Shown here: positions 3,370 to 43,667 of the stretch, one piece after another
How positions within the stretch are numbered: position 1 is the first letter of the stretch
Layout: every line of letters begins with the position of its first letter
Origin: Hormiphora californensis
Lineage: Eukaryota; Animalia; Ctenophora
Direction of reading: 5' to 3'
Assembly (NCBI GenBank): GCA_020137815.1
Contig: CM035359.1
Location: 1-64,000 of the forward strand
Length of the DNA stretch: 64,000 bases
The notes under the pieces: generated by a model
Databases searched by the model: none
What the model saw: only the letters and a program-made list of their open reading frames with translations
Told to the model about the DNA's origin: nothing
Program-made: the position numbers and the translations under genes

Positions 3370-8630
<5,261 letters not shown>

Positions 8631-13734: not shown

Positions 13735-14454
13735 ATGGGTGTGGTTACTAAGTTGTTCCACTTTTTGGCGGGAATTTACCATGTCTACTTCCTGCTCTAT
13801 CCCACAATCAACCAACTAAAAAGCCTTCCTACTGCATCTACTTTTGGTGGTAAATGGAAATACCTCACTTTCATAACGAACATGATCAACTGTTGGTATT
13901 TCATCACCGTTTTCTGCCAAGATTTCATCTTCTTCTTCGTTTTGAGCGAGGAACGCAACAAGAAAATCAAACGGACTCTAGATGCCTTGTTTGGTGGTAT
14001 AGTGTGTCCAGCAGCCATTGTGGTTGGTACCGCATTCTGGGGGATATACCACACCAAGAAAGCTGCCATCTGGTCTGATAAATTGGATGAACTAATACCC
14101 CCGATGTACAATCACATGATGCATACCTTCCTCATCCCAATCGCGCTGATTGAGCTGATCCTATACCGACACGATTATCTCAACGTTAAAGGAGGACTAA
14201 TGCTCTGTACCTCCTACACAGTAGGCTACATTATCTGGCTGCACGTGGTGAAGTATGTGGGTGGTGTTTGGGCCTACCCCATCTTCAACATGTTAAATTC
14301 TCGTGGTCAGGCTATTTTTCTGGGGATCATGGTCATAGCAATGTATATGATATTCTTCCTTCAGCATTTCTTACATCATTTGGTACATGGTCAGTTGATT
14401 GTCACCAATACAGCTAGTAAGGGGAAGAGGGCTAAAACTAGGAAAGTCGAGTAA
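13735..14454 (+). CDS. AIG1/ADTRP (FAR-17a) family hydrolase, paralog 2
   Basis: 239 aa; FGGKWKYLTF, NHMMHT and WAYP motifs; colinear with the upstream paralog. Confidence 0.9.
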   Translation: MGVVTKLFHFLAGIYHVYFLLYPTINQLKSLPTASTFGGKWKYLTFITNMINCWYFITVFCQDFIFFFVLSEERNKKIKRTLDALFGGIVCPAAIVVGTAFWGIYHTKKAAIWSDKLDELIPPMYNHMMHTFLIPIALIELILYRHDYLNVKGGLMLCTSYTVGYIIWLHVVKYVGGVWAYPIFNMLNSRGQAIFLGIMVIAMYMIFFLQHFLHHLVHGQLIVTNTASKGKRAKTRKVE

Positions 14455-14775: not shown

Positions 14776-17700
14776 ATGGGGGATGTTAACGAGAAGCATA
14801 TTCGGAGCGTTCTAAACCAACAGCTCATTGCCACTGGTGAAAAGGAGAAACTTCTGGATCTTCTCAAGGTCAAACTCATCGAGTGTGGCTGGCGGAATGA
14901 GGTACGTCATAAGCATTTGTGACATCATCAAAATTGGGGGGGGGGGGGTTCAACCCAAAAAATTTCCATTGATACCCACTTTTTTGGCAAATGGAAATTT
15001 TATATTGGAAATTTTTAGAAATTTTTAGAATTTTTTGGAAATTTTTAGAAATTTTTAGAATTTTTTGGAAATTTTTAGAAATTTTTAGAAATTTTTAGAA
15101 ATTTTTAGAAATTTATGGACAATGGAAATTTTTAGAAGTTTTTAGTAAATGGAAATTTTTAGAAGTTTTTAGAAATTTTTAGAAATTTTTAGGATTTTTT
15201 AGAAGTTTTTAGAAATTTTTAGAAGTTTGTCGGTAACCCAATTCCAAGCTAATGACAGGTAATCTTTGCATGTTTTCGACAGTAAGTTAGTTATCCACGC
15301 TACATCCATGATCTACAGTGATCTAGCTTAAAAAAGAGTTTAAAGTTTCTATATTGTATGCTAAGAAACCTGATCTACTACGGTATTAGGCATTCCGTCT
15401 GAAGGAATGTAAGGTATCTTGTGCTATTTGGTAACTTACTTTTCAATAAGTTTTCGAGACGCCCTTAGTTGGCCTTAGTTGGCCAATGAATCTATGATTT
15501 CTGAAGACCAATTAGCAATCCCGGATACTCAACGATTCGGTGAGGATCACATGACCTGACTAACTTTAAGAAACATGACACTGTATCTCTTGTGGTGGTC
15601 CAATTTAACTGATCTCGGTCACATTGAAAAGCTAATCGATAGCCAAACATAATTGGTTAAATTTTGGACCGGAAAATATTTTTTTCTGGAATGAATGACC
15701 ATGTTCATTCCGATCAAAAAAATGAATTTTGAGCTAGAGGTCTGAAATTTTGGTCAAGTTATTTATTTGTCTCATAGAGTAGCTGTACCAAATTTTAGCA
15801 CTCCGCGATATCTAGAACTATGGTAGACTTAGGGGGGATTTTTTATTGCCCCACACTGTATAATTAAATGATTTATTGATGCCCACTGGCATTGCCCAGT
15901 GCTCGCAAGAGGTAAGGAAAAGGAACCAGTTCTGAGACAACTGCGTTTGTATATTTTCAAGTTTTTGTTAATTTTTCTTTTCTTGGTCAATGGAAATTTT
16001 TGGAAATTTTTGGAAATTTTTAGAAATTTTTGGAAGTTTTTAGTACTAAAAACTTCTAAAAACTTCTAAAAAATTCTAAAAATTTCTAAAAATTTCCATC
16101 GATACCCGGATTTTGGCAAATGGAAATGGAAATTTTTAGGTTGAACCCCCCCCCCAAAATTTGTTTCTGGCCAAACTAGAATTTGCATTTTGTAATCTAG
16201 CCAAACTTAAATGTGTAATCCATGTTTCAGATGAAACAGCATTGCCGAGAGGCTCTCAGACGAAATAAGGCCAAAGCCAATGTCGAGGAACTAATCGAGG
16301 AACTGACCCCTAAAGCACGTGCAAGGTAGTATTATATTGGTGATCTGGCCCATGATATTAGTTCACGGAGCTAAACCTTTCTGAAACATAGATCTTCGAT
16401 TCTTAGGAGTAATTAATTAAAATTAAAATTTTCAAACTTATAAGATTCAATGAGATTTCCATCGTTCAATACAGACATCGTTGTTATCATAGTTATAGAA
16501 AGTTAAGCGTTATTTTTTGAAAAATAAAAATGAGAGGTTTCTTCAAATAATACTGTCTTCGCCCAACAAACGCTTCTAAAATAGTCATACAGATTCCGAT
16601 CTTATCTCGGGCACAGAAGTTTCCGTTGCAAAAAATGGTTGTCTGGAGCTATTATACCGCCTTGCTGAAATTCGGGTGAGTTGTTGTTGCACACAGCATC
16701 CGCCTCCTTCTCCGGATAAGATAACGACTGGGTTTACCACCGAGTTGAGTGAAATTATAAAGGGCCACGCCTTGGCACACGAGACGTAGAGATGGAATGT
16801 CCCCGGAAAGAGGTAGAATAATGGAACAATGAATCCGAAGCTGTTAGTAATTAAAAACAGTATGGCGATAATCAGGATAATTACGGTAGCTTTCCGTTTA
16901 GCTCTCTCCGTTTCACTCACAAAACTGCCCCTCCGGAGACTAACACAAGTCCAGATGGTGATGATGAGAATCACCACTAGATTGATCCCCGAAAGCACGA
17001 TGAGAGCGTAGACATATTTGAGGAAAGTTAGCCAGGAGAAAATGGTAGTTCCTGCGGTAACTAATAAGGAGACGACCCACAGTATTCGCTGATTTATCCT
17101 GTAGAAGGGTGTGGAAACCACGATTAGCCGAGTAGCGCTGATCACACATGTCCATACAGCTGAAGCTTGATTGGCATACAGCACATAGTTCATACACGAT
17201 TGATGTTCATCGCCACGACAAAACCCTGCCGGTTCGAACACCATAAGCAGACAGGTTATTATGTCGATTAGCCCGAGAACCACGTAGAGTCTGGAAGCAA
17301 GTCCGTTCGTTTTCCAGCGATATCCAACGGCCGCAATATTGGCGATGAATCCCAAAACACCAAATATGGCAATGGCAATCTTTTCTTCGTGCGTGTATTC
17401 AAGGGACATATTTTCTAGGGCGTGGGAATACATGTGGATTAGTTGTAGAGGAAATATATAATACAAACATCGATATTGCATACTAACTGCTGTTATATAT
17501 GAATGTTATGGAAATGCTAGCTACAAACAACAATTACGCATCTACAGAATATAGATATTAGTGAGAATTAGTATGGGAATCCAATATTATATATAGATAG
17601 TGCCAATGTGATACCAATGCCAGCAATAGTTTCTTGATCTGAAAAGGGGCGTGTACTATGTTCATCGTTTTTACTGTGTATCTGTCTAACAAAGGCAGCG

Positions 17701-20700
17701 ATAATTCCCGGCTGCTGTAATTAGCTATTTTATAACTTATCATAATATCAAAGCATAATATTTAACTAGGGCCAGAGTTCTTTTGAAGAGGGCTCTAGCT
17801 CCTTAGCCCTTCTAGCTCTTCCTCTAGTAGAGAAAGCTCCATAATAAATAAGAAATATGTGCATAACAGAAACCTCTACAAGAGGGACAACAACGCGACA
17901 TCCACGTGCAAGACTGTTATTTTTTGAGACGCCGCCCCCCCCCCCCCCCCCCGACGACAGTCAAACCTCGATTTACCGGGCTCCTCGGGGGAAGGATGCA
18001 CGGTGAATCGAGGGATGACTGAATCATGTGCCGAATGCTACATAGCCTCCAGTTGGTGACGTAGTCACCCCTCCACTACCAGCCGAGTGAAGCGTGGCAA
18101 TCAAAGTCCACACAGCCGAGTGAAGCGTGGCAATCAAAGTCCACGAAGAGGGTTTGCCAACGGGTAACAACTGCAAGAAATCTGTTAGCAGTGTGTGCAG
18201 CACATGTATGTTTCAAACAAAACAGTCTCTACATACTTATATAAGAGGTGCAACTCATTTCGCCCTGCTCGCCAATGTATAGATCGTTAAACTTTATTGC
18301 TATCTGAGATAGGGGCTCTGAATAATGGATAGCCGACTAATGATCAACATGACCTCCTTAGTGAAGTGTGCCAGACTTCTTTATGTAGATCATGCAAGTC
18401 TACTAGTAGCATCATGTGAGAGGGAGCACGTATTAAGGGTACACCTGGCGTTTTTCATCATCGAGTGCCCAACCAAATGACTTCACCAGGGTTTAGGCCA
18501 TACAAAATGGACCTCAAATATGCAATTTTAGCCCTAAAGTCGAATTCATATTTTTCCTACAGCCTATTTTCAAAGTGGCGTTTTTTCAATTTTTGTTGAA
18601 ATTTTTAACCTCAGGACCACTTTTTTTGAGATAGAAACATTAAATTCTTGGAATTTGAAGAGAATATAAAGGTGAATAAGCCCAAAGAAGGATTTTTGAA
18701 ATGGAGCTTATTTCTGGCCATGAGAACGGTTTACTTTTTTGCTTCTTTGACACGCTGGCTGAGAATGTTCCCATGCTTCATTAGAGATGAAAATCTGGAA
18801 ATAGTTGCTCAAAACGATTATCTATGTGGCCCAAAAATTTTGGAACTTTCCCGCCAAAGATGTGGTGTACAGAGCTTTTTTTGTGAAACCCGTCTTTTTG
18901 AAAAAGAGGGAAATTCCCTGTATCTCAAAAACGGATGATCGTAGAGACCTGGGACCAAACTTAATCGATTCAGAAGGTCCGATTTTGGGGGGGTCTTCTG
19001 AGAGACATTTTGCTCCTACTCCAACCGATTTTGCTGTAAATGCAAAAAACCAATTCTATGAAAAGGGGAAACAACTCTATTCCAGTAGCCTGCTTCGGGC
19101 TGATTTCCCCCTTACTTGCTGATACCTTTTTCGCAATTACAGCAAAAACGGTTGGAGTAGGAGCAAAATGTCTCTCAGAAGACCCCCCCAAAATCGGACC
19201 TTCTGAATCGATTAAGCTTGGTCGCAGGTCTCTACGATCATCCGTTTTTGAGATACAGGGAATTTCCCTCTTTTTCAAAAAGACAGGTTTCACAAAAAAA
19301 GCTCTGTACACCACATCTTTGGCGGGAAAGTTCCAAAATTTTTGGGCCACATAGATAATCGTTTTGAGCAACTATTTCCAGATTTTCATCTCTAATGAAG
19401 CATGGGAACATTCTCAGCCAGCGTGTCAAAGAAGCAAAAAAGTAAACCGTTCTCATGGCCAGAAATAAGCTCCATTTCAAAAATCCTTCTTTGGGCTTAT
19501 TCACCTTTATATTCTCTTGAAATTCCAAGAATTTAATGTTTCTATCTCAAAAAAAGTGGTCCTGAGGTTAAAAATTTCAACAAAAATTGAAAAAACGCCA
19601 CTTTGAAAATAGGCTGTAGGAAAAATATGAATTCGACTTTAGGGCTAAAATTGCATATTTGAGGTCCATTTTGTATGGCCTAAACCCTGGTGAAGTCATT
19701 TGGTTGGGCACTCGATGATGAAAAACGCCAGGTGTACCCTTAAGGGTACGCTAACCAAAAATTTTTTTCGAGTGCAGGGAAATCTCTCACCGTAGGGTTG
19801 TAGGCCATGCCAAGGAGACCTCAAATATGCAATTTGAGCTCTCAAGTCGAATTCATATTTTTGCTACAGCTGCTTGAAAAATGAACTGAAAATAAGTTTT
19901 TGGCATCTTAAAAAATTTTTTTAAAAGATAGAAGCATGAAAATTTGGGGATTTGAAGAGGACATGAAGGGGAATAACCACAAAAAATTTTTTTGCAATCC
20001 GAGCTGATTTCCGGTCCTGAGATGGATTTCTTTTTTTCCACTTTAACGCCCTATTTGGCAAAGTTCCGAAAATATGTGAAAGCTGTAAATTTGTGAAAAG
20101 TTGCGTCTAACGATTATCTAAGTGGCCATAAATTTTGGGCGTGTCCTTATTTGAAATAAGATGTACAGAGTTTTTTTTGTGAAAGCCGTCATTTCAGAAA
20201 TAGATAAATTCCCTGTATCTCAAAAACGGCTGATCGTAGAGACCTGAGACTATGCTTAAACGATTCAGAAGGTCCGATTTTGGGGGGGGTCTTCTGAGAG
20301 ACATTTTGCTCCTACTTCAACGGTTTTTGCTGTAATTGCGAAAAACAAATTCTATGGAAAGGGCAAAAGCTAAACTCCAATATCCTGTAATTAGGGAATT
20401 TTGGCTAAGAAAGGACCGAAACTATGGAAAAATGTGTAACAAGCTAATTCCTTCATTATTTGGTCCATATGGGTCCCTATAATCATCAAAAACAAAATCA
20501 CAAAAAATCCACGATGGCGAAGATGGGTTTTTGTTTTTCGCAATTACAGCAAAAACCGTTGAAGTAGGAGCAAAATGTCTCTCAGAAGACCCCCCCAAAA
20601 TCGGACCTTCTGAATCGTTTAAGCATAGTCTCAGGTCTCTACGATCAGCCGTTTTTGAGATACAGGGAATTTATCTATTTCTGAAATGACGGCTTTCACA

Positions 20701-23442
20701 AAAAAAACTCTGTACATCTTATTTCAAATAAGGACACGCCCAAAATTTATGGCCACTTAGATAATCGTTAGACGCAACTTTTCACAAATTTACAGCTTTC
20801 ACATATTTTCGGAACTTTGCCAAATAGGGCGTTAAAGTGGAAAAAAAGAAATCCATCTCAGGACCGGAAATCAGCTCGGATTGCAAAAAAATTTTTTGTG
20901 GTTATTCCCCTTCATGTCCTCTTCAAATCCCCAAATTTTCATGCTTCTATCTTTTAAAAAAATTTTTTAAGATGCCAAAAACTTATTTTCAGTTCATTTT
21001 TCAAGCAGCTGTAGCAAAAATATGAATTCGACTTGAGAGCTCAAATTGCATATTTGAGGTCTCCTTGGCATGGCCTACAACCCTACGGTGAGAGATTTCC
21101 CTGCACTCGAAAAAAAATTTTGGTTAGCGTACCCTTAAAAGAGGGAAAGAAAGGTCAAGGACATTTAACAATGAGAGCTAGGAGCGGTACTGTGTGCAGC
21201 GTGCCCTAATAAACTAGATAAATAATGAGCTGATGAAAGATGGATGTTGATTAATAGGAGGCCGTATAATATTTTTAGTTTTTATAGAGGACCAAGAAGA
21301 ATAGAGCAGGTATTGATATAATATTATGTCAAACAAGGTCTTCTCTGAATATCCACTGGATATTATCCAGTCGCCATGGCTACAACAAATCGATTGATTT
21401 CTCGTGTGAAAATACGAGACCTTGGTACGCAATATTTAAGTACTACAGTAGGTCATTAGCATAGTAGAGGGCCTTTTTTGCAGGCGACGCAATTTTCCAA
21501 ACAGCACGTTGGTGCCGAAACTATAAAAGTGCCATTTCTACTCTTTTCAAACGAATTCTATGTTCTCAAGGACTCTCTCCCTCTCTCCGTTTCAGCTGAA
21601 CTATCTGTTACTAATAACGCCCGATTCCTGGCCTATTTAAGCCCAGTGTTGACATACACAGTCATTTGTCGCAGTTAGGTTGAACAGATAGAAATGGAGA
21701 GAGGTTTAAATCTGGAACTTGCTCGACCCTGTTTTCCCACTCCCCAATAAGATGGGTTTGAACTTTGAACAAAACAAGAACTTGATACAAGGCATGGTAA
21801 TGAAAAAGAATCAAATGTGTAGCTTTTTCAGTAGTTAGTCGTGCCCCCATGAGGTCCAAAGAAGATATTTTATGCAATATACCGACTACCGTAATAAGAG
21901 GAGAACACTGCCAAATAGTCGCATAGAAACAACGGCGAATTAAAGTGTATCATAAATTTTGTCCAGATCTTAATTAAAAGATGCAAATGAGTGGCGTGGT
22001 GATGTCCTATCATCACGTGCAAATAGTGGGGGGTTGCCAAGGAGGTGCCATAGCCCAGCTACGCAGCGGGTGATTGAAGGCTGCACGTGCGGGTTGGTGC
22101 AGCGGGTGAGAGGGGCGCTCCTGGGTGAGGGAGAGCGTGGGGATTCGGGCCAACGGGCGCTTTACTCCATAAACTCTGTAAATGAACGTGCACTGTAAAT
22201 ATAGTTAGCCGTTACGCCAGAAAGGGTTCATTCCGTTTTCATACCGTTTATAAAAAACGATTTAGAGGGATTTCCGATTTTAAATGGGCTATGCATAGCT
22301 ATGGCTCTAATTAAAGTTAGGGATCAAGACATTATCTACCAATTACCATCTAAGGACTAAGACATATAATGATACCTAGATAGACATTTGAACTCTGAAG
22401 TATAAAGCTGTGTAAAGACTAAAGAGATCCCTTCGGCTATATTATAGGTAACCAGTTAATTTAGTGGGTAATTAGTTTATCAAGGAATACGGCCTGATAA
22501 AGGGATTCAGTAAATTAGAAGAAGACAGCTGGTTAGCAAGAATTAGAAGATACAATTTTCTTTGTCATCAACAATCACCGAGTTTCCTCCCAGTTTCCTG
22601 CAACTGCCAATCAATTCTTCAGTATCTCTAATGAACTCTACTGTGCTCTTCCTTCCTATATCTTTCTCATGTGTCTCTATATATCTTTATTTCTCTCTCT
22701 ATCGGCTATCGCTGTCTTTCTCATAAAATAGCAAGGAGGAAAGAAAAGTAACAGTGCATAGCATACAGTTGGTGCAAACAATTCCCGCGAGTTGCAACTT
22801 AGAATGAGTATTTTTAGTATCCAGAGAAAGAGAGAGCATTAAAGAATTCAGTATTATATATTATACAACAGCGCTTTATGCAGAATACAGGCTTCATAAT
22901 TATCACTAGAATTATATGAGCTGTCTGTCCTCGGGTACATACAGCGAGTGATATACGTAATATGTGATTATTATAATTATATGTATTACGCTAGAGACAT
23001 AATTGGTTACAGTTTATGCTGATGATCAAGATAATAATTTATCTGTCTTTTATTGCAAAAAATATTTCCGGGAGAAAAATACGAGTTTTAAAGTATGCTA
23101 CAGTCGGACCACGATTTAGGGCCCCCCGATTTAGTGGCACCCCGATTTAGGGACAGGATTTTTTTCCCCGATATAGGAAATTTACCTTATTTGACCCCGA
23201 TTTAGTGGACACCCCGATTTAGTGGACAAGAGCCTTTCCCCCGAGGGTGTCCCTAAATCGGGGTCCGACTGTATACTGTAACTCCAATAAAAGATACAGT
23301 GCTGATTTAATTGCTTAAAAAGTCAAATTCATAATTTTCTAACCCAACATTTTTCAGTGTCCCTGATGATGTAAAGAAAGAGCTTCTGTTACGGCTGAGA
23401 ACATTTGTTGACAATAACTCTGATCGATTCCTCAGCGACTGA
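14776..23442 (+). CDS. ENY2: Transcription and mRNA export factor ENY2/Sus1, 3 exons, 101 aa
   Basis: Exons 14776-14901, 16231-16325 and 23358-23442 with GT-AG ends and matching phases: ...[38 protein letters not shown]...VEELIEELTPKARAS|VPDDVKKELLLRLRTF. Confidence 0.93.
14936..16155. mobile_element. Non-autonomous TIR element with poly-G/poly-C ends in ENY2 intron 1
   Basis: G(n)TTCAACC...GGTTGAAC(C)n, flanked by AAAATT on both sides; subterminal (AGAAATTTTT)n arrays. Confidence 0.75.
16585..17409 (-). CDS. Rhodopsin-like (class A) orphan GPCR, intronless, nested antisense in ENY2 intron 2
   Basis: Seven hydrophobic segments, TM2 Asp (LGLID), ISATRL at the DRY position, NSVVNPVV in TM7. 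Probable start MSLEY at 17409, after CTAAT...CCCTAG. Confidence 0.85.
   Translation of the reverse strand: MSLEYTHEEKIAIAIFGVLGFIANIAAVGYRWKTNGLASRLYVVLGLIDIITCLLMVFEPAGFCRGDEHQSCMNYVLYANQASAVWTCVISATRLIVVSTPFYRINQRILWVVSLLVTAGTTIFSWLTFLKYVYALIVLSGINLVVILIITIWTCVSLRRGSFVSETERAKRKATVIILIIAILFLITNSFGFIVPLFYLFPGTFHLYVSCAKAWPFIISLNSVVNPVVILSGEGGGCCVQQQLTRISARRYNSSRQPFFATETSVPEIRSESV
18437..19739. mobile_element. Kolobok-like foldback element 1
   Basis: TTAA|GGGTACACC...GGTGTACCC|TTAA with about 610-bp near-perfect inverted arms. Purine termini plus TTAA fit Kolobok rather than piggyBac (CCY). Confidence 0.8.
19744..21134. mobile_element. Kolobok-like foldback element 2
   Basis: TTAA|GGGTACGCT...AGCGTACCC|TTAA with about 600-bp arms; related to element 1 and sharing its TTAA at 19740-19743. 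Confidence 0.8.
23101..23271. mobile_element. Tc1/mariner-pogo-type MITE
   Basis: TA|CAGTCGGACC...GGTCCGACTG|TA; same family as 989-1161. Confidence 0.85.
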
Positions 23443-23868
23443 TTCCACAAACAAGACGAAATACAAATTATATCCTTTAACCAATAACAGTGTCGATATT
23501 AAAGAGCGATAATTTGATATAATATTATGTTTTGAGGACAAACGGCAGATGAAAATGATGCGGGTCATAACTAGTGTTTTAGAAAGCCGAGAGAGATAGC
23601 CGGAGAGAGAGAGAAATAAACCGATTTTACTTCCTTTTTAGCCTAATAAATATGTCAGTTTTTATTGAGCAGAGATCATATCTCACCCAATCCACACGTG
23701 AATTATATAATTGTGTAAAATATGTTTTGACACTTTTTGTGTGAAGATTTTCTTGTTTTTTTCCAAACTGCCTCCTCCAAAGACCAAAACCCTCCCCCTC
23801 CTTGACCCATTATTATAACCTAACATTCTCTTCCATGACTGACAACTATCCATCTCCCTCTTTATAGA

Positions 23869-24864
23869 ATGCCACACGTATGGGTTGCCACCGATCTCGG
23901 CTCACTACGGGGTGTCGACTTCAAGACTGAACAAAACACAGTCGTCACATACGATGAACTATCGCCCCGGTACGACATAGCATCACTCCGTTATTCAGCC
24001 TCAGGGGGAGAGCTCTACTGTACACTCCGGCAAGATCTGGTCAATGTGTTTGATGTAAATGAGGGGATTTATGTGAATCAGTACGAGGTGGAGGGTAAAC
24101 TTGTCACAGCGTTTGATGTTGGTGAGGCCTTGTTGACGTGTACCAGAACTGGCCAGGTTCTGCTATGGAAGGATGATGAAATTGCTGATAAACTAAAAGT
24201 TGGGAGCGAGGATTTGGAGTGCTGTGAAAAGGTTTCCGATACTTTGATAGCAACCGCTGGAAAGGAACAGGAACTCAAACTCTGGGATTTAGAGACACAA
24301 AAATCAGTGTGGCAAGCAAAAAACGTTCCCCGTGACGAACTAGATTTACGGATTCCAGTTTGGGCCCGATCACTATGTGAGATAGGAGAGAGTGGTGGAA
24401 ATGTGTTTTGTGTCGGCACTCAGTATCATCAACTGAGATTATACGACAGGAGAACAAAACGGAGACCCGTCCAAGAGTTAAACTGGGGCGAACTACCCAT
24501 AACATGTATCACATCTCGGGGAGATAACGTGTTTTTTGGAAACGGCAAAGGTGACCTGACACGAGTTGATGTCCGTGCAATAACGCGAGATGTGGTGAAG
24601 TACAAGGGTGCATCGGGGGGATTGAGGGGTGTGGCTGTTCACCGAACTGAACCATTCCTTGCATCTGTTGGACTTGACCGACACTTGAGAGTCCATGATA
24701 TCAACACCAGAGAGATGGTCCACAAGTTTTATTTGAAGCACAAGTTGAACTGTGCAGTGTTTACTAGCGAGAGAGTGAGAGAGAAGGAGGAGGATGATGA
24801 GGAGGATGTGTGGGAGATTTTGGATGGTGTGAAACGAAGAAAGATCGAGGATAATGAGGGATGA
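23869..24864 (+). CDS. WDR74: WD repeat-containing protein 74 / Nsa1 (60S biogenesis)
   Basis: Intronless 331-aa WD40 ORF with family motifs AKNVPRDELDLRIPVW, LRLYDRR..RRPV, SVGLDRHLRVH, YLK..LN and an acidic tail with VWE. Confidence 0.92.
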   Translation: MPHVWVATDLGSLRGVDFKTEQNTVVTYDELSPRYDIASLRYSASGGELYCTLRQDLVNVFDVNEGIYVNQYEVEGKLVTAFDVGEALLTCTRTGQVLLWKDDEIADKLKVGSEDLECCEKVSDTLIATAGKEQELKLWDLETQKSVWQAKNVPRDELDLRIPVWARSLCEIGESGGNVFCVGTQYHQLRLYDRRTKRRPVQELNWGELPITCITSRGDNVFFGNGKGDLTRVDVRAITRDVVKYKGASGGLRGVAVHRTEPFLASVGLDRHLRVHDINTREMVHKFYLKHKLNCAVFTSERVREKEEDDEEDVWEILDGVKRRKIEDNEG

Positions 24865-25788: not shown

Positions 25789-28700
25789 TCACACAGCGTC
25801 CGATTTAATCTCGGGCACAGAAATTTCAGCCACATTAATTTCTTGTCTTGTTGTAGAGCTGCTGAGTTGCCCACAGCACCGGACTTCTTCGCAGCCGTGT
25901 GATAAGATAACGACTGGGTTTACCTGGGGTGGAAATGGGTGTATGATGTTTGCTGTAGCGATTACGCAACACATCCCTCTCATACATCAAGTCCAAAAAG
26001 TCTACCTTCTCGCCGGTCCACCCTGATTTCGACTAAAGACTGAGGACGCTGCGGTTTTTCGGGTTGGCAACCCGTCTGACTTTAATAACTTGCTACGAAT
26101 CTCTCGGCATCCTCAAATTTGGCGTCGGCGAATGCTGGCAAGCACCTTACTCCGGACAGCGAGGTTAGGGTGACCAGAGGACGGGAGGAGGGTAAAGCTG
26201 ATTCAGGTGTTTCGGGGCCCTCCGACCTGATGGGAGTCTCGGATCTGGTGTCATTTAATCGCAGAGTCATTTCTGGCCAACACGTCCCTGGTGTGGCCGC
26301 CCCTGGTTCTTTTAGTTCCTTTAGTTCTTTTAAGCCGATTAATGCAGTCCGTAATTATTTTCATCTGGCAACTTGGAATGTCTTATCGTTACAGTCATCA
26401 TCTTCCAAACTTTTTGAATTATCTAACGCAGTTTCATCTTTCCGTCTCGACGTTTTGCTCCTCACAGAGACGCACTGGCCTGGCGTGGAGACGAGTACCC
26501 TAGACAACGGGTCTCTATTTATTAACTCTGGCAGGGCAGATGGTCTGAGACGGCAGGGCGTCGGGATTGTTTTATCTAAATCTGCTAAGAAGTCCTTAAT
26601 TTCCTACAGCCCTTTCTCTGAACGGATTTTAGGAGCCCGACTACACACCAAGCACGTGAACATCTCTATTGTTGTTGCGTATGCTCCCACCAATGACAAG
26701 GATGACGCGGTTAAGGAGGAGTTCTATAACCAGCTTTCATCGGTTCTGGATAGGCTTCCCCGACAGGACGTGGTTTTCCTTGGTGGTGACTTTAACGCCA
26801 GGGTTGGTGGTGGACATTCTCTTCATACGGTGTCCAATGATAACGGTCAGCGGCTGGAGGATTTGTGTGGTACCTATCAGCTCTCTGTTGGTGGAAGGAT
26901 GTTCCCTCATAAGGATCATCATAAAGGAACCTGGAAGTCCCCTGATGGTAAAACTGTTACACAGATCGACCACATCTGTATTGGTAACAAGTGGCGCAGT
27001 TCACTGCTTGATGTGAGGGTGATGCGGAGTGCGGACATTGGGTCCGATCACTACCTGGTTCGTGGGAAGGTCCGTATTAAGCTCAGTTCAGCTAAGAACT
27101 GTAAGAAATCAGTTAGGGAGGTTCCTGCTGTCGAGAATCTGAGAAAGGGGTGCGCTGAGACACGCACGAAATATAATGTCTCTCTCCAGAACAGGTTTGA
27201 CGCCTTAGAACCTGAGGAAAGTCTGGAGGGTCAGTGGGGGCAACTTAAGGAGGTAATCGGCGAGGTTTCACTTGAGGTTCTGGGAGCTCGGCCGAAGCGG
27301 ATCCGTCAGCAGCACTTGTCTCTCGAGACTCGAGACCTCATCGCACAGCGTGCTGAGCTGAAGAAGAATGATCCCGAGGGTGGATCTGAGTATTCTAAGC
27401 TGAACAAGCTGGTCAAGAAAGCAGCACGGTTGGACGATGAAAGGTGGGCGGATGGTTTGGCATCGGATTTGGAGGATGCTGCGGTGCATGGGCGGCAGAG
27501 GGAGCTTTGGCAGCACATGAAAGATCTTTCGGGTGTGAGGAAACGTGGTGGTGCTGCTGTTCGCGATAGGAATGGTGAACTCATCGCTGATCCTGTTCAA
27601 CAGCGGGACCGCTGGGCGGAGCACTTCTCTGAGCTGTTAAACCCCCCTGTAACTACATCACAGCTCTCGGATCTGGATGGTCTGGATGTGGACCCGTGTT
27701 TTGAGGACCTTGGTGAGGATGATCCTCCACCTTCTCGTGTAGAAGTATTGACAGCACTGAAAAGGCTCAAAAACCATAAGAGTCCCGGCGTCGATGGGAT
27801 CACGAACGAACAACTACGGTATGGTTCGTCCGGTCTCGTTGGCCCCCTTGTGGATCTGTTTCGGGGAGTCTGGAGGGAGGAGAAGGTCCCGGAGGAGTGG
27901 TTAAAGGGTGTCATCTCGGTGATTCCCAAGAAGGGTGACGCCAGTGTGTGCTCAAATAATAGGGGCATCACTCTGCGATCTACCACTTCCAAGCTGTTCC
28001 AGATAATTATGCTGAACAGGTTGTCTTCTGGTCTTGAATTGGCACTTCGAGAGAATCAGTGTGGATTCAGACGTAACCGGTCTTGTGTGGATCAGATTTA
28101 TTCCCTCCGTACCATCATCCACCAGTGTATCGATTATAATTTACCGTTGTATATAAACTTTATTGATTTCAAATCCGCTTTCGATTGTATAAACAGGGAT
28201 TTCGTCTGGGCCGCATTTCGCCATTACGGTCTTCCAGAGAAGTATGTCCGGATAATTCGAGCATTCTTTGACGGTACTATGAGTGCAGTGAGACATGGTG
28301 GGGAGCTCTCCAGCTGGTTCAGTGTTCTCAGTGGTACTGGTCAAGGCGACATCCAGGGTCCTCCAGTCTTTAACATCGTGATTAACTGGGCGGCTCAGCT
28401 TGCTGAGTCCAACAAGACTGTCTCCAGGGGTCTCACTCTTCACGGCGCTGAGAGTGATGAGGGTGGGGAATGGATCATGGACCTCGACTATGCTGATGAC
28501 ATGGCTGTTATGGATGATACTGAGGAAGGTCTCCAGGAGTCTACGGATTTGCTGGTAAAATACGCAGGGTATGCTGGCTTGAAGATTAACGCGAAGAAGA
28601 CCAAAGTTGTAGCTTTTTCAAAGGGTCTTAGCCAGCGCCCATTTTCCGAGGCGGATACGGTCAGCATTTCTGTGGAGGGTAATCCGGTTGAGCAGGTTTC

Positions 28701-30005
28701 CAGTTTTACCTATCTCGGATCGGCTTTGTCCTCTGATGGTACCATCGACAAGGAGCTGGGTATCAGGATAGGGAAAGCTTACAGTGCATTCAGTATGCTT
28801 TGTCGGATCTGGTACAATCGTAACATCAGGACCTGTACCAAGATCAGGATATACAGAGCTGCTGTTCTGACGGTGCTTCTCTATGGTTGTGAGGCCTGGA
28901 CAACAACCCAGGTGCAAGATCGCCGCGTGGAGGCATTCCACCAACGGTGCCTGCGGAGAATCCTGAGAATACAATGGTATAAGCGGGTGTCTAACAGGGA
29001 GGTATTGGAGAGAGCTGGGATAGAACCATTATCTGCGTTCATTGGCAATGGGAGACTCCGATGGTTTGGGCACATGATTAGAATGCCTGAGGATAGGGTT
29101 CCCAACAGACTTTATCATTGGGTGCCTAGTCATGGAAAACGATCCAGAGGAAGACCACGTAAAACTTGGTCCTCCTGTGTGTTAAATGATTATCGAGACG
29201 CTACAGGAAAATCCCAGTCTATCCGTACAATTACTACGACTGCAATGAACCGTAACGAATGGCGACAGCTTACGACGCTAAGAGTGAGGATACCGGAAGC
29301 CGGCCACTCGAATGATTGAGGAGACCGTTCCAAGTATCAAGTAAGTACCACCGAGTTGAGGGAAATTACGAAGGGCCACGCCTTGCCACACGAAACATAG
29401 AGATGGAGTGTCGCCGGAAAGAGGTAGAATAATGGAACAATGAATCCGAAGCTGTTAGTAATTAAAAACAGTATGGCGATAATCAGGATAATTATGGTAG
29501 CTTTCCGCTTTGCTCTATCCGTTTCACTCACAAAACTGCCCCTCCGAAGACTAACACAAGTCCAGATGGTGATGATGAGAATCACCACTAGATTGATCCC
29601 TGAAAGCACGATGAGAGCGTAGAAATATTTGAGGAAAGTTAGCCAGGAGAAAATGGTAGTTCCTGCGGTAACTATCAAGGACACAACCCACAGTAGTCGC
29701 TGATTGATCCTGTAGAAGGGTGTGGAAACCACGATTAGCCGAGTAGCGCTGATCACACATGTCCATACAGCTGAAGCTTGATTGGCATACAGCACATAGT
29801 TCATACACTTAATCCCCGACAGTTGAAACATCATAATCAGACAGGTTATTATGTCGATTAGTCCGAGAACCACGTAGAGTCTTGATGCGAGTCCGGGGGT
29901 TTTCCAGCGGTGGCCAATAGCTGCAATGTTGGTGATGAGACCAGAAAAACCAAATACGGCGATGGCAATTTTTTCTTCACTCGTGTATTTAACATTATCG
30001 GACAT
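25789..30005 (-). CDS. Orphan class A GPCR paralog interrupted in TM7 by an RTE LINE (spliced gene or recent pseudogene)
   Basis: 5' part 30005-29349 (...ISLNSV) and 3' part 25923-25789 (VNPVVILS...SVPEIKSDAV*) join to a protein colinear with the GPCR at 16585-17409. Confidence 0.85.
25925..29345 (+). mobile_element. Apparently full-length RTE-clade non-LTR retrotransposon
   Basis: Single EN-RT ORF; very short 3' UTR ending in CAAGTA-type short repeats; TACC duplicated at 25921-25924 and 29346-29349. Confidence 0.93.
26119..29319 (+). CDS. LINE AP-endonuclease / reverse transcriptase (first ATG at 26230)
   Basis: ATWNV, LTETHW, GDFNA, IDHI, SDHY (endonuclease); KSPGVDGI, NRGITL, QCGFR, FIDFKSAFD, GTGQG, YADD, FTYLGS and RLRWFGH (RT, RTE-type C-terminus). 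Confidence 0.97.
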   Translation: MASANAGKHLTPDSEVRVTRGREEGKADSGVSGPSDLMGVSDLVSFNRRVISGQHVPGVAAPGSFSSFSSFKPINAVRNYFHLATWNVLSLQSSSSKLFELSNAVSSFRLDVLLLTETHWPGVETSTLDNGSLFINSGRADGLRRQGVGIVLSKSAKKSLISYSPFSERILGARLHTKHVNISIVVAYAPTNDKDDAVKEEFYNQLSSVLDRLPRQDVVFLGGDFNARVGGGHSLHTVSNDNGQRLEDLCGTYQLSVGGRMFPHKDHHKGTWKSPDGKTVTQIDHICIGNKWRSSLLDVRVMRSADIGSDHYLVRGKVRIKLSSAKNCKKSVREVPAVENLRKGCAETRTKYNVSLQNRFDALEPEESLEGQWGQLKEVIGEVSLEVLGARPKRIRQQHLSLETRDLIAQRAELKKNDPEGGSEYSKLNKLVKKAARLDDERWADGLASDLEDAAVHGRQRELWQHMKDLSGVRKRGGAAVRDRNGELIADPVQQRDRWAEHFSELLNPPVTTSQLSDLDGLDVDPCFEDLGEDDPPPSRVEVLTALKRLKNHKSPGVDGITNEQLRYGSSGLVGPLVDLFRGVWREEKVPEEWLKGVISVIPKKGDASVCSNNRGITLRSTTSKLFQIIMLNRLSSGLELALRENQCGFRRNRSCVDQIYSLRTIIHQCIDYNLPLYINFIDFKSAFDCINRDFVWAAFRHYGLPEKYVRIIRAFFDGTMSAVRHGGELSSWFSVLSGTGQGDIQGPPVFNIVINWAAQLAESNKTVSRGLTLHGAESDEGGEWIMDLDYADDMAVMDDTEEGLQESTDLLVKYAGYAGLKINAKKTKVVAFSKGLSQRPFSEADTVSISVEGNPVEQVSSFTYLGSALSSDGTIDKELGIRIGKAYSAFSMLCRIWYNRNIRTCTKIRIYRAAVLTVLLYGCEAWTTTQVQDRRVEAFHQRCLRRILRIQWYKRVSNREVLERAGIEPLSAFIGNGRLRWFGHMIRMPEDRVPNRLYHWVPSHGKRSRGRPRKTWSSCVLNDYRDATGKSQSIRTITTTAMNRNEWRQLTTLRVRIPEAGHSND

Positions 30006-32730: not shown

Positions 32731-33554
32731 TACTACCTACAACAAACTTTTCCAATTCTGATTCGGTCCACTCTCACTTTAAGCTACCCTCGGGCACACG
32801 GTACTTTCGTCCAAAATCCATTCTTAACCTCATTTATTCATGAACCACATTTTTCATTGAGTCGGTAATACATATACCTCAATACGTCTAATTAGTAGAG
32901 TCGATAACTACATCGACCTCTCCCAATTGTTCCAGTTTTTGTCACATCTGTTTGGAGCCTCGACACGACCTCTAAACAGGTGTTACTTTTTCACAAACTG
33001 TTTTCATCTTGGTGTAATCAGCAGTTGAAATGTTGCTGATCATAACAAAAACCTAACTATTTTTTTTCAACTTGGGGTAAAACCATGGGTGTCAAAAGTT
33101 AGCTCTAGGTCCCCTGAGTAACCATCCGGAGACTCTAAGAGATATTTCAAGCCGTTCTCCCGTAATCATTAATCCCGGTGGAGAAAAAAACACAATGCGG
33201 ACGTACGTGAGCGCTGGCAGGCTGTTTACATGTTATTGTATGTCTCTCACTCTCTCTGGAGAGATAACTCTTTCTCAAGGGGGAGAAAAGAGAGAGACGC
33301 ACATTAACGGGGGGGGTTCCAACCTATTTCGTGTACGTTTGTACGGAAAAAAACACGGGTTTCCTCAAACAAAAAAATACAAAAAAATACAAAAAAATAC
33401 AAAAAAGTACAAAAAAATACAAAAAAATAAAAACAGTTTTATATGGTAATTTACCATTATTGTTCGAACTTTTACTGTTTTTAAAATTCTTCCACGCTAT
33501 TTCACGCAATTTAGCACAAAATATATACATATTTTACATATGTAGCATGCCAAA

Positions 33555-35460
33555 ATCGCGAGAGAAATTTCCCCGAATCGCAATTTCTTACCGAGAAAAT
33601 TTTCTCGAATCGTATTTTCTAAGCGAGAAATTTCCCCGAATCGCAATTTTTTACCGAGAAAATTTTCTCGAATCGTATTTTCTAAGCGAGAAATTTCCCC
33701 GAATCGCAATTTCTTACCGAGAAAATTTTCTCGAATCGTATTTTCTAAGCGAGAAATTTCCCCGAATCGCAATTTCTTACCGAGAAAATTTTCTCGAATC
33801 GTATTTTCTAAGCCAGAAATTTCCCCAAATCGCAATTTCTTACCGAGAAAATTTTCTCGAATCGTATTTTCTAAGCCAGAAATTTCCCCGAATCGCAATT
33901 TCTTACCGAGAAAATTTTCTCGAATCGTATTTTCTAAGCGAGAAATTTCCCCGAATCGCAATTTTTTACCGAGAAAATTTTCTCGAATCGTATTTTCTAA
34001 GCGAGAAATTTCCCCGAATCGCAATTTCTTACCGAGAAAATTTTCTCGAATCGTATTTTCTAAGCGAGAAATTTCCCCGAATCGCAATTTCTTACCGAGA
34101 AAATTTTCTCGAATCGTATTTTCTAAGCCAGAAATTTCCCCGAATCGCAATTTCTTACCGAGAAAATTTTCTCGAATCGTATTTTCTAAGCGAGAAATTT
34201 CCCCGAATCGCAATTTTTTTACCGAGAAAATTTTCTCGAATCGTATTTTCTAAGCGAGAAATTTCCCCGAATCGCAATTTCTTACCGAGAAAATTTTCTC
34301 GAATCGTTTTTCTAAGCGAGAAATTTCCCCGAATCGCAATTTCTTACCGAGAAAATTTTCTCGAATCGTATTTTCTAAGCCAGAAATTTCCCCGAATCGC
34401 AATTTCTTACCGAGAAAATTTTCTCGAATCGTATTTTCTAAGCCAGAAATTTCCCCGAATCGCAATTTCTTACCGAGAAAATTTTCCCGAATCGTATTTT
34501 CTAAGCGAGAAATTTCTCCGAATCGCAATTTTTTACCGAGAAAATTTTCTCGAATCGCATTTTCTAAGCGAGAAATTTCCTCGAATCGCAATTTCTTACC
34601 GAGAAAATTTTCCCGAATCGTATTTTCTAAGCGAGAAATTTCTCCGAATCGCAATTTTTTACCGAGAAAATTTTCTCGAATCGTATTTTCTTAGGCTATA
34701 AGCATACTGATCGTGATGATCATAATCAGGTCAGTGTGCGGACGTTTTGATGGTCACCATCAAAGGAGCGCACACACTGATGGTTATCATCATGATGGAT
34801 GCTTGATGCATCATGATGTTCTCAAACCATAGTGTGTTCACGTTTGATCATCATGAACCATAGTGTGCTCACGTTTGATCATCATAAACCATGCTCAACT
34901 TACTGGAACTTGCCTTTTGATCATGATCATCATGACCAGTGTGCTCAGCATGATGATGCTATCTCCCGGGAGCTCCCCCTTGCCTAGTCGCGCGCTCTGA
35001 GAGGCTGTTGCATATCACGTGACCTGTACAACAGCCTCTCGCACGCGCGAAGTCGTACCACGTGGTACATATCACATGACTACAGTGCAGCCCTCCACAA
35101 GAATAAGATCAAAACCTGCGCACACTAGGTGTTGATGATCATCATCCAACTTAAGAGACGGCTCCAGGGCCAGCTCTTACGTGATGATCATAATGTTCCG
35201 CACACTGTAGTTTTTTGCAGATGATGATGATCAAAACCATGAGCACACTTCATCTTTTTAACTGATTATGATCATCACGATCAGTATGCTTATAGCCTAA
35301 GCGAGAAATTTCCTCGAATCGCAATTTCTTACCGAGAAAATTTTCTCGAATCGTATTTTCTAAGCCAGAAATTTTCCCGAATCGCAATTTCTTACCGAGA
35401 AAATTTTCTCGAATCGTATTTTCTAAGCGAGAAATTTTCCCGAATCGCAATTTCTTACCG
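33555..35460. repeat. 63-bp tandem repeat made of two related 31-32-bp halves, about 20 copies, split by a MITE
   Basis: Unit CTAAGCGAGAAATTTCCCCGAATCGCAATTTCTTACCGAGAAAATTTTCTCGAATCGTATTTT; produces the 21-aa periodicity in spurious ORFs. Confidence 0.95.
34694..35297. mobile_element. PIF/Harbinger-like MITE inserted in the 63-bp array
   Basis: TTA|GGCTATAAGCATACTGATCGTGATGATCATAATCAG...CTGATTATGATCATCACGATCAGTATGCTTATAGCC|TAA. Confidence 0.8.
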
Positions 35461-36152
35461 TTTATGTATAGCTGGGTTCCGTTTATGTTCATGTACATGT
35501 ATTATTTATACTTTTTTCACGCATCCACATCCTTCATTATTTTTTTGTATTTTTTTGTATTTTTTTGTATTGTTTGTATGGAAAAAAACAGGAATTTTGG
35601 ATACATTTATGTATGGTCCGTACAAAAAAATACAAAAAAATACAAAAAAATAGGTTGGAACCCCCCCCATTAACGTTATACATTAAAGTTGAGGTTGTAG
35701 GCAATTGCACGTACGTCCATACTCAAATATGTGCTCTACCGGGATTAATGATTACAGGAGAACGGCTTGAAATATCTCTTAGAGTCTCCGGATGGTTACT
35801 CAGGGGACCTAGAGCTAACTTTTGACACCCATGGTTTTACCCCAAGTTGAAAAAAAATAGTTCGGTTTTTGTTATGATCAGCAACATTTCAACTGCTAAT
35901 TACACCAAGATGAAAACAGTTTGTGAAAAAGTAACACCTCTTTAGAGGTCGTGTCGAGGCTCCAAACAGATGTGACAAAAACTGGAACAATTGGGAGAGT
36001 TCGATGTAGTTATCGACTCTACTAAATTGAGTGAGTTGTAAGGGAGAGCAAAACGATTGAAAGTGAGTTACACCGTCTAGATCTGTAATCTGGACCTCCC
36101 CTCCCCTCTTATTGCTACACCCCTGGTGAATATTAACAATTATATATTCCAA

Positions 36153-40259: not shown

Positions 40260-43200
40260 CAGGGTGTGAACTGCATGTCGTGTTTGCTAGTCGCGAGCGC
40301 GCTTGCGAGACAAGTAAACACGTCAAGGTTCATTAACAAGCATGCTGCTCAGTCATTTTAGATTTAATACACAATGTAAGGATACCATGTTATAGGTGAG
40401 ACTCTTGCCGTCACCCTCGTTCAAGTCCCGTGAAAAACGGAGCAGTACACGCAAACTGATGCCCATTTTCTTCGCGTGACCCCGATTCAGCAGTTTGAGA
40501 CACCAACTCTTTAGGGGGCCATATCTCAGGAACCAGACAAGATAGGAAAAATCGCCGTCTAATGAGGCGTACAGTTTTTAATCTAGTTTACCACTGTACC
40601 GGCCGTTTCACTCTCCGACCTAAAACAAAAATCGCAACCCCACAAAACTCCAAAATAATGAAATTCGCATCTCGCATGTCGTGTTGCATGTCGTGTCATG
40701 TTATTGACGCGCTCGCGTTCAACTCTCACACAGCAGCTGCAGAACATGGCGGGAAACATCGAGGAGTAGAGAGAGGGTCGGTGCCGAATCAAATATTTCT
40801 TGATCTTGATCTACTCCATCTCTCAGCTATCCTACCCCTCATCAACTCGATCTCTCAGCTACCCTACCCCTCATCTACTCCATCTTTCAGCTACCCTACC
40901 CCTCATCTACTCCATCTTTCAGCTACTCTACCCCTTATCTAGTCCATCTCTCAGCTACCCTACTCCTCATCTACTCCATCTCTCAGCTTCCCTATTAGGG
41001 AAGCATAAAGATGGAAACGATTAGGGGTAGGGAATCCCTATCCATAATCGTTTCCATCTCTATGCTTCCCTAGCCCTCATCAACTCCATCTTTCAGCTAC
41101 CCTACCCCTAATCTAGTCCATCTCTCCGCTACCCTACTCCTCATCTACTCCATCTCTCAGCTACCCTACCTCCCATTTACTCCATCTCTCAGCTTCCCTA
41201 CCTCCCATTTACTCCATCTCTCAGCTTCCCTACCTCCCATTTACTCCATCTCTCAGCTTCCCTACCTCCCATTTACTCCATCTCTCAGCTTCCCTACCTC
41301 TCATTTACTCCATCTCTCAGCTTCCCTACCTCCCATTTACTCCATCTCTCAGCTACCCAACCTCCCATTCACTCCATCTCTCAGCTTCCCTACCTCCCAT
41401 TTACTCCATCTCTTAGCTTCCCTACCTCTCATTTAGTACTCCATCTCTCAGCTACCCTACCTCCCATTTACTCCATCTCTCAGCTTCCCTACCTCCCATT
41501 TACTCCATCTCTCAGCTTCCCTACCTCCCATTTACTCCATCTCACAGCTACCTTACCTTCCATTTACTCCATCTCTGAGCTTCCCTTCCTCCCATTTACT
41601 CCATCTCTCAGCTACCCTACCTCCCATTTACTCCATCTCTCAGCTTCCCTACCTCCCATTTACTCCATCCCTGCCTCCCATTTACTCCATCTCTCAGCTA
41701 CCCTACCTCCCATTCACTCCATCTCTCAGCTACCCTACCACCCATTTACTCCATCTCTCAGCTTCCCTACCTCCCATTTACTCCATCTCTCAGCTTCCCT
41801 ACCTCCCATTTACTCCATCCCTCAGCTTCCCTACCTCCCATTTACTCCATCTCTCAACTTCCCTACCTCCCATTTACTCCATCTCTCAGCTACCCTACCT
41901 CCCATTTACTCCATCTCTCAGCTTCCCTACCTCCCATTTACTCCATCTTTCAGCTTCCCTTCCTCCCATTTACTCCATCGCTTACCTTCCCTACCTCCCA
42001 TTTACTCCATCTCTCAGCTTCCCTACCTCCCATTTACTCCCTCTCTCAGCTTCCCTACCTCCCATTTACTCCATCTCTCATTTATCCTAACATTCCTACC
42101 CCTGAGAGATGGAGTAAATGGGAGGTAGGGAAGCTGAGAGATGGAGTAAATGGGAGGTAGGGAAGCTGAGAGATGGAGTAAATGGGAGGTAGGGTAGCTG
42201 AGAGATGGAGTAAATGGGAGGAAGGGAAGCTGAGAGATGGAGTAAATGGAAGGTAAGGTAGCTGAGAGATGGAGTAAATGGGAGGTAGGGAAGCTGAGAG
42301 ATGGAGTAAATGGGAGGTAGGGAAGCTGAGAGATGGAGTAAATGGGAGGTAGGGTAGCTGAGAGATGGAGTACTAAATGAGAGGTAGGGTAGCTGAGAGA
42401 TGGAGTAAGTAAATGAGAGGTAGGGAAGCTGAGAAATGGAGTAAATGGGAGGTAGGGAAGCTGAGAGATGGATCAAATGGGAGGTAGGGTAGCTGAGGGA
42501 TAGAGTAAATGGGAGGTAGGGAAGCTGAGAGATGGAGTAAATGGAAGGTAGGTAAGCTGAGAGATGGAGTAAATGGGAGGTAGGGTATCTGAGAGATGGA
42601 GTAAATGGGAGGTAGGGAAGCTGAGATATGGAGTAAATGGGAGGTAGGTAAGCTAAGAGATGGAGTAAATGGGAGGTAGGGAAGCTGAGAGATGGAGTAA
42701 ATGGGAGGTAGGGTAGCTGATAGATGGAGTGAATGGGAGGTTGGGTAGCTGAGAGATGGAGTAAATGGGAGGTAGGGAAGCTGTGAGATGGAGTAAATGG
42801 GAGGTAGGGAAGCTGAGAGATGGAGTAAATGGGAGGTAGGTAAGCTGAGAGATGGAGTAAATGGGAGGTAGGGTATCTGAGAGATGGAGTAAATGGGAGG
42901 TAGGGAAGCTGAGATATGGAGTAAATGGGAGGTAGGTAAGCTAAGAGATGGAGTAAATGGGAGGTAGGGAAGCTGAGAGATGGAGTAAATGGGAGGTTGG
43001 GTAGCTGAAAGATGGAGTAGATGAGGGGTAGGGTAGCTGAAAGATGGAGTAGATGAGGGGTAGGGTAGCTGAGAGATCGAGTTGATGAGGGGTAGGATAG
43101 CTGAGAGATGGAGTAGATCAAGATCAAGAAATATTTGATTCGGCACCGACCCTCTCTCTACTCCTCGATGTTTCCCGCCATGTTCTGCAGCTGCTGTGTG

Positions 43201-43667
43201 AGAGTTGAACGCGAGCGCGTCAATAACATGACACGACATGCAACACGACATGCGAGATGCGAATTTCATTATTTTGGAGTTTTGTGGGGTTGCGATTTTT
43301 GTTTTAGGTCGGAGAGTGAAACGGCCGGTACAGTGGTAAACTAGATTAAAAACTGTACGCCTCATTAGACGGCGATTTTTCCTATCTTGTCTGGTTCCTG
43401 AGATATGGCCCCCTAAAGAGTTGGTGTCTCAAACTGCTGAATCGGGGTCACGCGAGGAAAATGGGCATCAGTTTGCGTGTACTGCTCCGTTTTTCACGGG
43501 ACTTGAACGAGGGTGACGGCAAGAGTCTCACCTATAACATGGTATCCTTACATTGTGTATTAAATCTAAAATGACTGAGCAGCATGCTTGTTAATGAACC
43601 TTGACGTGTTTACTTGTCTCGCAAGCGCGCTCGCGACTAGCAAACACGACATGCAGTTCACACCCTG
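40260..43667. mobile_element. 3.4-kb palindromic CAGGGTG-ended (Tc1/mariner-like) foldback element with inverted 32-bp satellite arrays
   Basis: 40260-40900 mirrors 43020-43667. Unit TCCCATTTACTCCATCTCTCAGCTTCCCTACC runs forward to about 42080 and reversed from about 42103. Confidence 0.85.

Follow-up and report, generated by a model that had tools for sequence, protein, structure and literature searches.

A 64,000-nucleotide stretch of the ctenophore Hormiphora californensis (contig CM035359.1, positions 1 to 64,000; hereafter the window) contains a G protein-coupled receptor (GPCR) gene that is interrupted in helix 7 by a long interspersed nuclear element (LINE) of apparent RTE type, 3,421 bp long, on the plus strand and antisense to the gene. 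The ends of this element (25925-29345) coincide with those of a predicted GT-AG intron (25924-29348) whose excision would restore the receptor frame exactly. We lean towards the interpretation that the LINE is a proto-intron that arose by chance and still segregates, namely a recent, intact insertion carried on one chromosome copy and predicted to be spliced out at some level. On paper, the element and its host junction plausibly fit an introner, in that the ends of element and intron agree and the frame is preserved, with splicing predicted. The features of the junction are as follows.

29349..30005, minus strand: 5' part of the GPCR, helices 1-6 and most of helix 7, 219 codons, from reading of the open reading frame (ORF)
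29346..29349, plus strand: copy of the target-site duplication that adjoins the LINE 3' end, with 29348-29347 as the donor GT, from sequence
29337..29339, minus strand: TGA met by unspliced read-through, before the N-P of helix 7, from translation
25924..29348, minus strand: putative GT-AG intron of 3,425 nt, predicted from frame and splice-site scoring
25925..25953, minus strand: C-rich, AG-free tract and acceptor A, the reverse complement of the G-rich LINE 5' end; acceptor 12.8 bits, rank 2 of 276 AGs
25921..25924, plus strand: copy of the target-site duplication that adjoins the LINE 5' end, with 25924 as the G of the acceptor AG, from sequence
25789..25923, minus strand: 3' part of the GPCR, 44 codons and a stop, starting with V-N-P of helix 7, from ORF reading

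Exon 1 runs for 657 nt from the ATG at 30005 and ends in phase 0, and exon 2 ends with a stop at 25789. Excision from the GT at 29348 to the AG at 25925-25924 would join 29349 to 25923 and yield a stop-free frame of 263 amino acids, colinear with an intronless paralog (17409-16585, minus strand) and identical to it in the helix-7 codons. The 4-bp duplication, GGTA in gene sense, supplies the donor GT and the last G of the acceptor AG, and the acceptor A and the pyrimidine tract come from the LINE. The nearest AG upstream of the acceptor begins at -31, which leaves an AG-free tract of 27 nt. Without splicing, translation would stop at 29339-29337, three codons inside the LINE. The earlier note on this DNA had described a perfect, frame-restoring intron. 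Its exons, GT-AG ends, GGTA duplication, AG-free tract and TGA were all re-derived here, as were the stop-free halves of the receptor, the uninterrupted paralog and the regeneration of the ancestral helix-7 codons upon removal of 29348-25924. The word "perfect" holds for the exact, frame-restoring GT-AG fit but leaves out of account a donor at 27054 and an acceptor at 27212 that is as strong as the one at the junction, between which a frameshifting pseudo-exon is predicted inside the element.

The inserted element is full-length and intact, as had been claimed, and comprises three features.

25925..29345, plus strand: full-length RTE-type retrotransposon without long terminal repeats (non-LTR), 3,421 bp, from sequence; multi-copy by contig depth
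26089..29319, plus strand: LINE ORF with apurinic/apyrimidinic (AP) endonuclease and reverse transcriptase (RT), from the ORF list and Pfam
29320..29345, plus strand: short LINE 3' untranslated region with AAGTA-like repeats, from sequence

The single open frame spans 1,076 codons from stop to stop, with its first in-frame ATG at 26230 (preceded by 305 nt of the element) and no separate ORF1, and its product matches the AP endonuclease (PF03372, E 3e-12) and RT (PF00078, E 1.7e-26) domains. The stop is followed by 26 nt of AAGTA-like repeats that lack a poly(A); the duplication starts with TA, the letters with which the repeat would continue, and on the minus strand this tail provides the donor positions from +4 onward. 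By its structure (a single ORF, endonuclease and RT, a repeat tail and a duplication) the LINE fits the RTE type, the clade label being one of structure. PMC5850137 describes the RTE-clade element AdLINE3 in similar terms (about 3.2-3.4 kb, a single ORF with AP endonuclease and RT, and a tandem-repeat tail without poly(A)), and the insertion signature given for RTEs in PMC6007223, a tail that has between one and a few bases in common with the target and a duplication that starts with T, is also shared. The Hormiphora LINE differs in its 4-bp duplication, compared with 8-20 bp in the plant RTEs covered in PMC5850137, and in having no T stretch about 10 nt upstream. The nearest named relatives of its protein, at 57-59% identity, are ctenophore proteins, which places the host among the ctenophores; they come from Mnemiopsis leidyi (57%) and from Bolinopsis microptera. 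When metagenome contigs were scanned with the protein of the LINE, six loci at 28-35% identity were found, none from the same family.

The host gene is otherwise well preserved. The rejoined receptor is 86.6% identical (227/262) to an uninterrupted database protein, P0122, whose "sb/" identifier we take to denote a Pleurobrachia gene model, and 81.5% identical (211/259) to the intronless paralog of the window.

16585..17409, minus strand: intronless paralogous GPCR of 274 amino acids, nested antisense in the 7,032-nt ENY2 intron, from its ORF, seven helices and matches to class A GPCR folds

P0122 has the same short first outer loop and C-terminal tail as the interrupted copy, and its model continues into sequence that matches the antisense of the last ENY2 exon near 23360-23450. 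Judged by sequence, P0122 is the orthologue of the interrupted GPCR, and it is likely to be so by position as well. The structural model of the paralog contains seven long helices and one C-terminal helix (mean pLDDT 83), and the best 50 Foldseek matches listed for it are all GPCR structures in the PDB. On this modelled fold, which extends to the interrupted copy through their 81.5% identity, the host gene is a rhodopsin-class (class A) GPCR. It resembles rhodopsin-family GPCRs in its seven helices and departs from them in its very short loops and in the absence of a Pfam 7tm_1 match in either of the two window proteins, compared with matches in 9 of 29 aligned relatives. The N and P of helix 7, just before which the insertion falls, are conserved in at least 90% of these 29 relatives. 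In their core the two paralogs (16585-17409 and 29349-30005) share 150 of 160 residues, compared with 144 of 160 shared with their own orthologues, and their ends follow the respective orthologues; the likeness of the cores suggests gene conversion.

We next considered the quality of the splice sites. A matrix was derived from 16 introns of the window (14 of V-ATPase A and two of ENY2; these gene labels, like that of WDR74, are the ones we presume), with boundaries set by eye and by translation. Natural sites were scored leave-one-out and candidate sites with the full model. The natural donors of the window are degenerate and its acceptors C-rich, and the sequence confirms the examples given in the earlier note: the weak donors GTACAC (7376) and GTACGT (14902), and at 3463 the acceptor CTCCCACCAG. 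Scored against these introns, the candidate sites do match the degenerate sites of the genome itself. The donor at 29348 reaches 6.0 bits (natural range -0.5 to 9.9), beats 5 of the 16 natural donors and is the best GT between the ATG and 29250; across the 4.5-kb gene-sense stretch it ranks 11 of 245 GTs. The acceptor beats 13 of the 16 natural acceptors, and the GTA directly after it recurs at this position in 5 of the 14 V-ATPase introns. We rejected the objection that a genome whose V-ATPase introns measure 113-457 nt would not tolerate one of 3.4 kb, since the two ENY2 introns reach 1,329 and 7,032 nt, the longer with the donor GTAGTA. Therefore, the tolerance of long introns together with the ranks of acceptor and donor makes splicing feasible. 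The ancestral insertion site also corresponds to the best donor-like GT of the paralog coding sequence (16737, minus strand, 6.8 bits), and the duplicated GT after the acceptor (25923, minus strand) is the top donor-like GT of the 4.5-kb stretch (9.6 bits).

The earlier note had suggested intron gain, and a gain by the species as a whole was not borne out. Six of 22 listed runs (X1, X5, X6, X22, X13 and X10) were aligned to the window as short-read contigs with depths; RNA-type runs with shares of 0.05-0.14 lie outside these six. X1 is the best-matching DNA sample and may be the window's own source, hence not independent. Its single-copy contigs have a depth of about 50. The 955-bp contig of the flank, at a depth of 49.1, breaks off precisely at 25924. 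The contig across the filled 5' junction (25895-25948) shows 0 differences from the window at a depth of 25.4, half that of the flank. Eight of the 11 X1 records were printed, and their depth bins are reproduced to 0.1 only with added records at 25895-25924 (about 32) and 25925-25954 (32.6). The paralog and the empty site have 35 bp in common (24 left, 11 right), so that an empty allele, if present, should make both contigs stop 6 letters beyond the site in a 31-mer graph, and the paralog contig does stop there in X1 and X5. A 326-bp record of X5 aligns over 320 letters up to 25924, with 6 letters left over. X5 has no extra depth over 25887-25899, which means that the filled junction is not seen in contigs that drop variants. 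In X13, a related organism, two records run past 25924 into letters that match 29350-29375 at 24 of 26 positions, in agreement with P0122. We infer that the insertion is heterozygous in X1 and absent from what was seen of the second sample and of the related organism, and hence that it would be a segregating allele of recent origin. The LINE is thus not on all alleles of the species, given the half depth in X1 and the empty site in X1 (from the depth bins) and X5. A homozygous empty state of X5 was considered and rejected, as X5 and X6, which are one sample, disagree in letters and depth ratios.

That the LINE was mis-joined into the gene during assembly is very improbable. The window does carry one or more probable consensus errors (exon 6 of V-ATPase is shifted by +1), and X1 may not be independent of it; on the other side, a short-read contig crosses the 5' junction without differences, and the clean duplication with its tail overlap is a retrotransposition signature, although the contigs resolve the 5' junction only.

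A number of points weigh against the interpretation of a spliced, segregating proto-intron. The acceptor at 27212 scores 13.2 bits, above the candidate, and pairs with a donor at 27054 (8.1 bits).

27055..27211, minus strand: predicted competing pseudo-exon in the LINE, 157 nt, acceptor 13.2 bits and donor 8.1 bits

Inclusion of this pseudo-exon would shift the frame and give a 251-amino-acid product without N-P. Gene-sense AATAAA motifs occur in the LINE at 28164, 28102 and 26523. Transcription of the LINE itself would collide head-on with that of the GPCR, which would also count against clean splicing. The splice model, built from 16 introns, is rough. RNA support for the exact 29349-25923 join is none in X22 and X10, neither of which covers the interrupted GPCR. 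As to zygosity, the empty-allele record of X1 was deduced from depth bins and not printed, the loose ends of X13 (26 letters) are shorter than the 31-letter bridging rule, and the depth of X5 and X6 is too uneven. Finally, TACC precedes the LINE in two of six other 5' junction classes, which speaks against a one-off event and is taken up below.

X22, an RNA-type run, has one record of 41 letters inside the LINE and leaves both the GPCR and the WD40 control gene uncovered, so it says nothing on expression. In X10, an oligo-dT metatranscriptome, a single 172-bp contig (depth 4.8) matches the 3' end of the paralog (16581-16750), a weak hint that the paralog is expressed. The earlier note had proposed junction reads with paralog-specific variants as the test of splicing; such reads cannot decide the matter when unphased, because splicing of the filled allele would yield an mRNA no different from that of the empty one.

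These points give some weight, less than we assign to a proto-intron, to a plain disruptive insertion, in which exact splicing would not occur to a meaningful degree (owing to the TGA at 29339, polyadenylation in the LINE, the pseudo-exon or silence of the locus) and the insertion would be a rare null allele of a redundant receptor. A heterozygous insertion that is absent elsewhere is what a young, mildly harmful allele would look like. Read-through would drop the highly conserved N-P, the pseudo-exon product would lack it too, three poly(A)-like motifs lie in gene sense, the donor is only eleventh in its transcript, and chance alone would produce a splice fit in a few percent of cases. However, both splice sites fall within the natural range, the acceptor near the top; the host gene is otherwise intact, as its identity to P0122 indicates; and long introns with weak donors exist in the window. 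On balance, the proto-intron remains the interpretation we prefer.

How often such a fit should arise by chance was estimated by simulation, in which the LINE with its present ends was placed across 6,556 nt of window coding sequence. With these ends, exact excision requires a duplication that starts with GGT in gene sense, or that holds AG followed by GT. An exact GT-AG resulted at 100 of 5,842 sites (1.7%) with a 4-bp duplication, at 22 of 298 sites (7.4%) if the duplication begins with TA on the element strand, and in 1,922 of 80,466 placements (2.4%) for duplication lengths of 2-15. The TA-anchored rate is the more apt, because PMC6007223 describes an overlap of one or a few bases between RTE tails and their targets. 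Under a laxer rule that accepts any GT-AG which keeps the frame and lies within 12 nt of the junctions, 1,267 of 5,842 sites (22%) qualified, a figure that disregards stops and site strength. The G-rich LINE 5' end produces the pyrimidine tract as a matter of course. The exact fit is therefore only modestly beyond chance, a matter of a few percent of antisense exonic insertions. At 1.7-7.4% per antisense coding insertion, selection is not needed to explain it and a large scan would meet such a case.

Taken together, we propose that a proto-intron could form here in the following way. An element with endonuclease and RT lies antisense in the GPCR gene between the two copies of a 4-bp duplication that starts with TA. 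Target-primed reverse transcription may have begun by pairing of the AAGTA-like tail with the TA at the nick, and this pairing would fix the TA found at the donor end. From the target come the letters CC, which account for the putative G|GT donor and for the last G; the candidate A and pyrimidine tract derive, on the opposite strand, from the first base of the LINE, T, and from its G-rich 5' end. The spliceosome could then join 29349 to 25923 and restore the ancestral mRNA, in competition with the pseudo-exon, the internal poly(A)-like sites and the opposing transcription of the LINE. Meanwhile, a second allele without the LINE and a close paralog would shelter the insertion at any splicing efficiency.

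The remaining alternative places the cause in the LINE family rather than in chance. Its members might prefer TACC targets and combine a 4-bp stagger with a 5' end that starts with T, so that antisense exonic copies would recurrently become exact introns and the cost of insertion would be lowered. The LINE 5' end (25925-26180) is much deeper than the single-copy flanks in X1 and X5, and its first bases differ among copies; depth and variation are consistent with an active family. Other copies were judged from six further 5' junction classes in the contigs of X1 and X5. The first is an X1 record at 25919-25954 with a depth of 55, compared with 25.4 for the GPCR junction; from graph and depth it would represent another copy, in which the six flank letters of the GPCR site and the T recur. 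A third GPCR paralog with the same insertion was rejected as its source, as X1 has no record at 95-99% identity. The second class is an X5 flank that ends in TACC without the T, hence without an AG, and the third an X5 flank that ends in GTATGT and is followed by a shorter G run. The other three show no preceding C: they are an unlisted X1 record from 25925, an X5 record (depth 2,164) that has the T plus a single additional letter other than C, and a diverged copy in X1, likewise from 25925.

The expectation that other copies would have GGTA-like targets thus has some support: two of the six classes end in TACC, but only one of them also has the T that would form the same acceptor. TACC makes up 5.9% of TA-starting tetramers in the window (485/8,178), and two hits have a probability of 0.02-0.03 for four to five classes and of about 0.045, calculated by hand, for six. 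This is a hint of a TACC target bias, and the T at 25925 is common to the deep X5 record. Against a family-level mechanism, in the deepest X5 class the T follows a non-C letter, 0 of 298 simulated sites became an exact intron when the 5' end lacked T or started with A or G, and the splice-compatible 5' form is a minority by depth; moreover, the other copies are known from 5' junctions, whose records hold neither 3' ends nor orientation nor genic context. An initial view that the deepest X5 class could form no AG was softened, as an unseen first base T would form one (22/298). Overall we consider a family-level introner unlikely. The corresponding broader picture, in which an active autonomous RTE introner is in the making, pairing of the tail with the target, a 4-bp stagger biased to TACC and a G-rich 5' end that starts with T convert antisense exonic copies into exact introns, the heterozygous GPCR allele is one intron caught while segregating and the empty allele is a built-in control, is similarly doubtful.

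Introners are defined in PMC9860276 as families of at least four annotated introns that are similar end to end and lie in unrelated genes. There, splice sites are recruited wholly or partly from short duplications, with 4-bp cases in Symbiodinium and Chrysochromulina, and mRNA length is unchanged. According to PMC12130899, non-LTR elements account for about 5% of classified introner families, and introners are in their great majority non-autonomous and short; 14 rows of its supplement file 8 are non-LTR, none of them RTE in the final class. The earlier note had set the case against intron-generating elements that are mostly DNA transposons. Autonomous non-LTR introners are already on record: row 7 of the same file lists Strongylocentrotus purpuratus fam1, a LINE/I-Jockey family with four annotated introns. 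As tabulated, fam1 is likewise an animal non-LTR element with RT (PF00078) and endonuclease (PF14529), is marked "co-opt both" and has mostly GT and AG ends, and its 5-bp duplication is short like the 4-bp one here. It differs as an I-Jockey element with RNase H and coordinates to about 7.1 kb, in contrast to a 3.4-kb RTE-type LINE at one unannotated, segregating site. Furthermore, the acceptor A of the Hormiphora LINE comes from the element, unlike fam1, which co-opts both sites from the duplication, and splicing is predicted here. Co-option of splice sites by a LINE introner is thus already known, also in an animal. Ctenophore terms were not found in the main texts of PMC9860276 and PMC12130899, nor in 12 of the 14 supplements of the latter, and a literature search for LINEs removed by splicing from within a coding exon, with limited coverage of subscription journals, found nothing relevant.

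The gain of an intron is almost always inferred afterwards, once the intron is fixed and annotated, and the elements known to generate introns are for the most part DNA transposons that are short and non-autonomous. A full-length, intact and heterozygous LINE, accompanied by an empty allele within one animal and, at a distance of 9 kb, by a paralog that has no intron, would be a clean natural experiment. The polymorphism allows a direct measure of the splicing of a brand-new 3.4-kb intron and of the persistence of splice-compatible insertions. If the target bias is true, the priming chemistry of RTEs would be tied to intron creation and ctenophores would join the introner-bearing lineages; if the allele is unspliced, it is an ordinary polymorphic knock-out.

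Several other features of the window were observed. The ENY2-like gene (14776-23441, plus strand) has three exons, and its 7,032-nt intron holds the antisense paralogous GPCR and two large inverted-repeat elements. PMC8527503 describes genes nested within long introns as a frequent feature of a ctenophore genome. Adjacent fold-back elements at 18433-19743 and 19740-21138 have inverted arms of 617 nt (99%) and 549 nt (100%). Directly downstream of the interrupted GPCR, and convergent with it, lies an intronless WD40 gene, WDR74-like (23839-24864, plus strand). In the V-ATPase A exon at 6997-6821 (minus strand), a one-base frame shift at about 6975 breaks an otherwise intact housekeeping gene and is likely an assembly consensus error. 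Two tandem FAR-17a/AIG1-like genes (12661-13406 and 13735-14454, plus strand) each form one open frame. A gene for a predicted membrane protein, which has frame breaks and no Pfam match, is repeated in tandem at 60635-63900 (minus strand), in near-identical units about 1,466 bp apart. A 63-bp tandem array spans 33426-35466, and at 40260-43667 arrays of 32 bp in opposite orientations lie within inverted arms of 735 nt.

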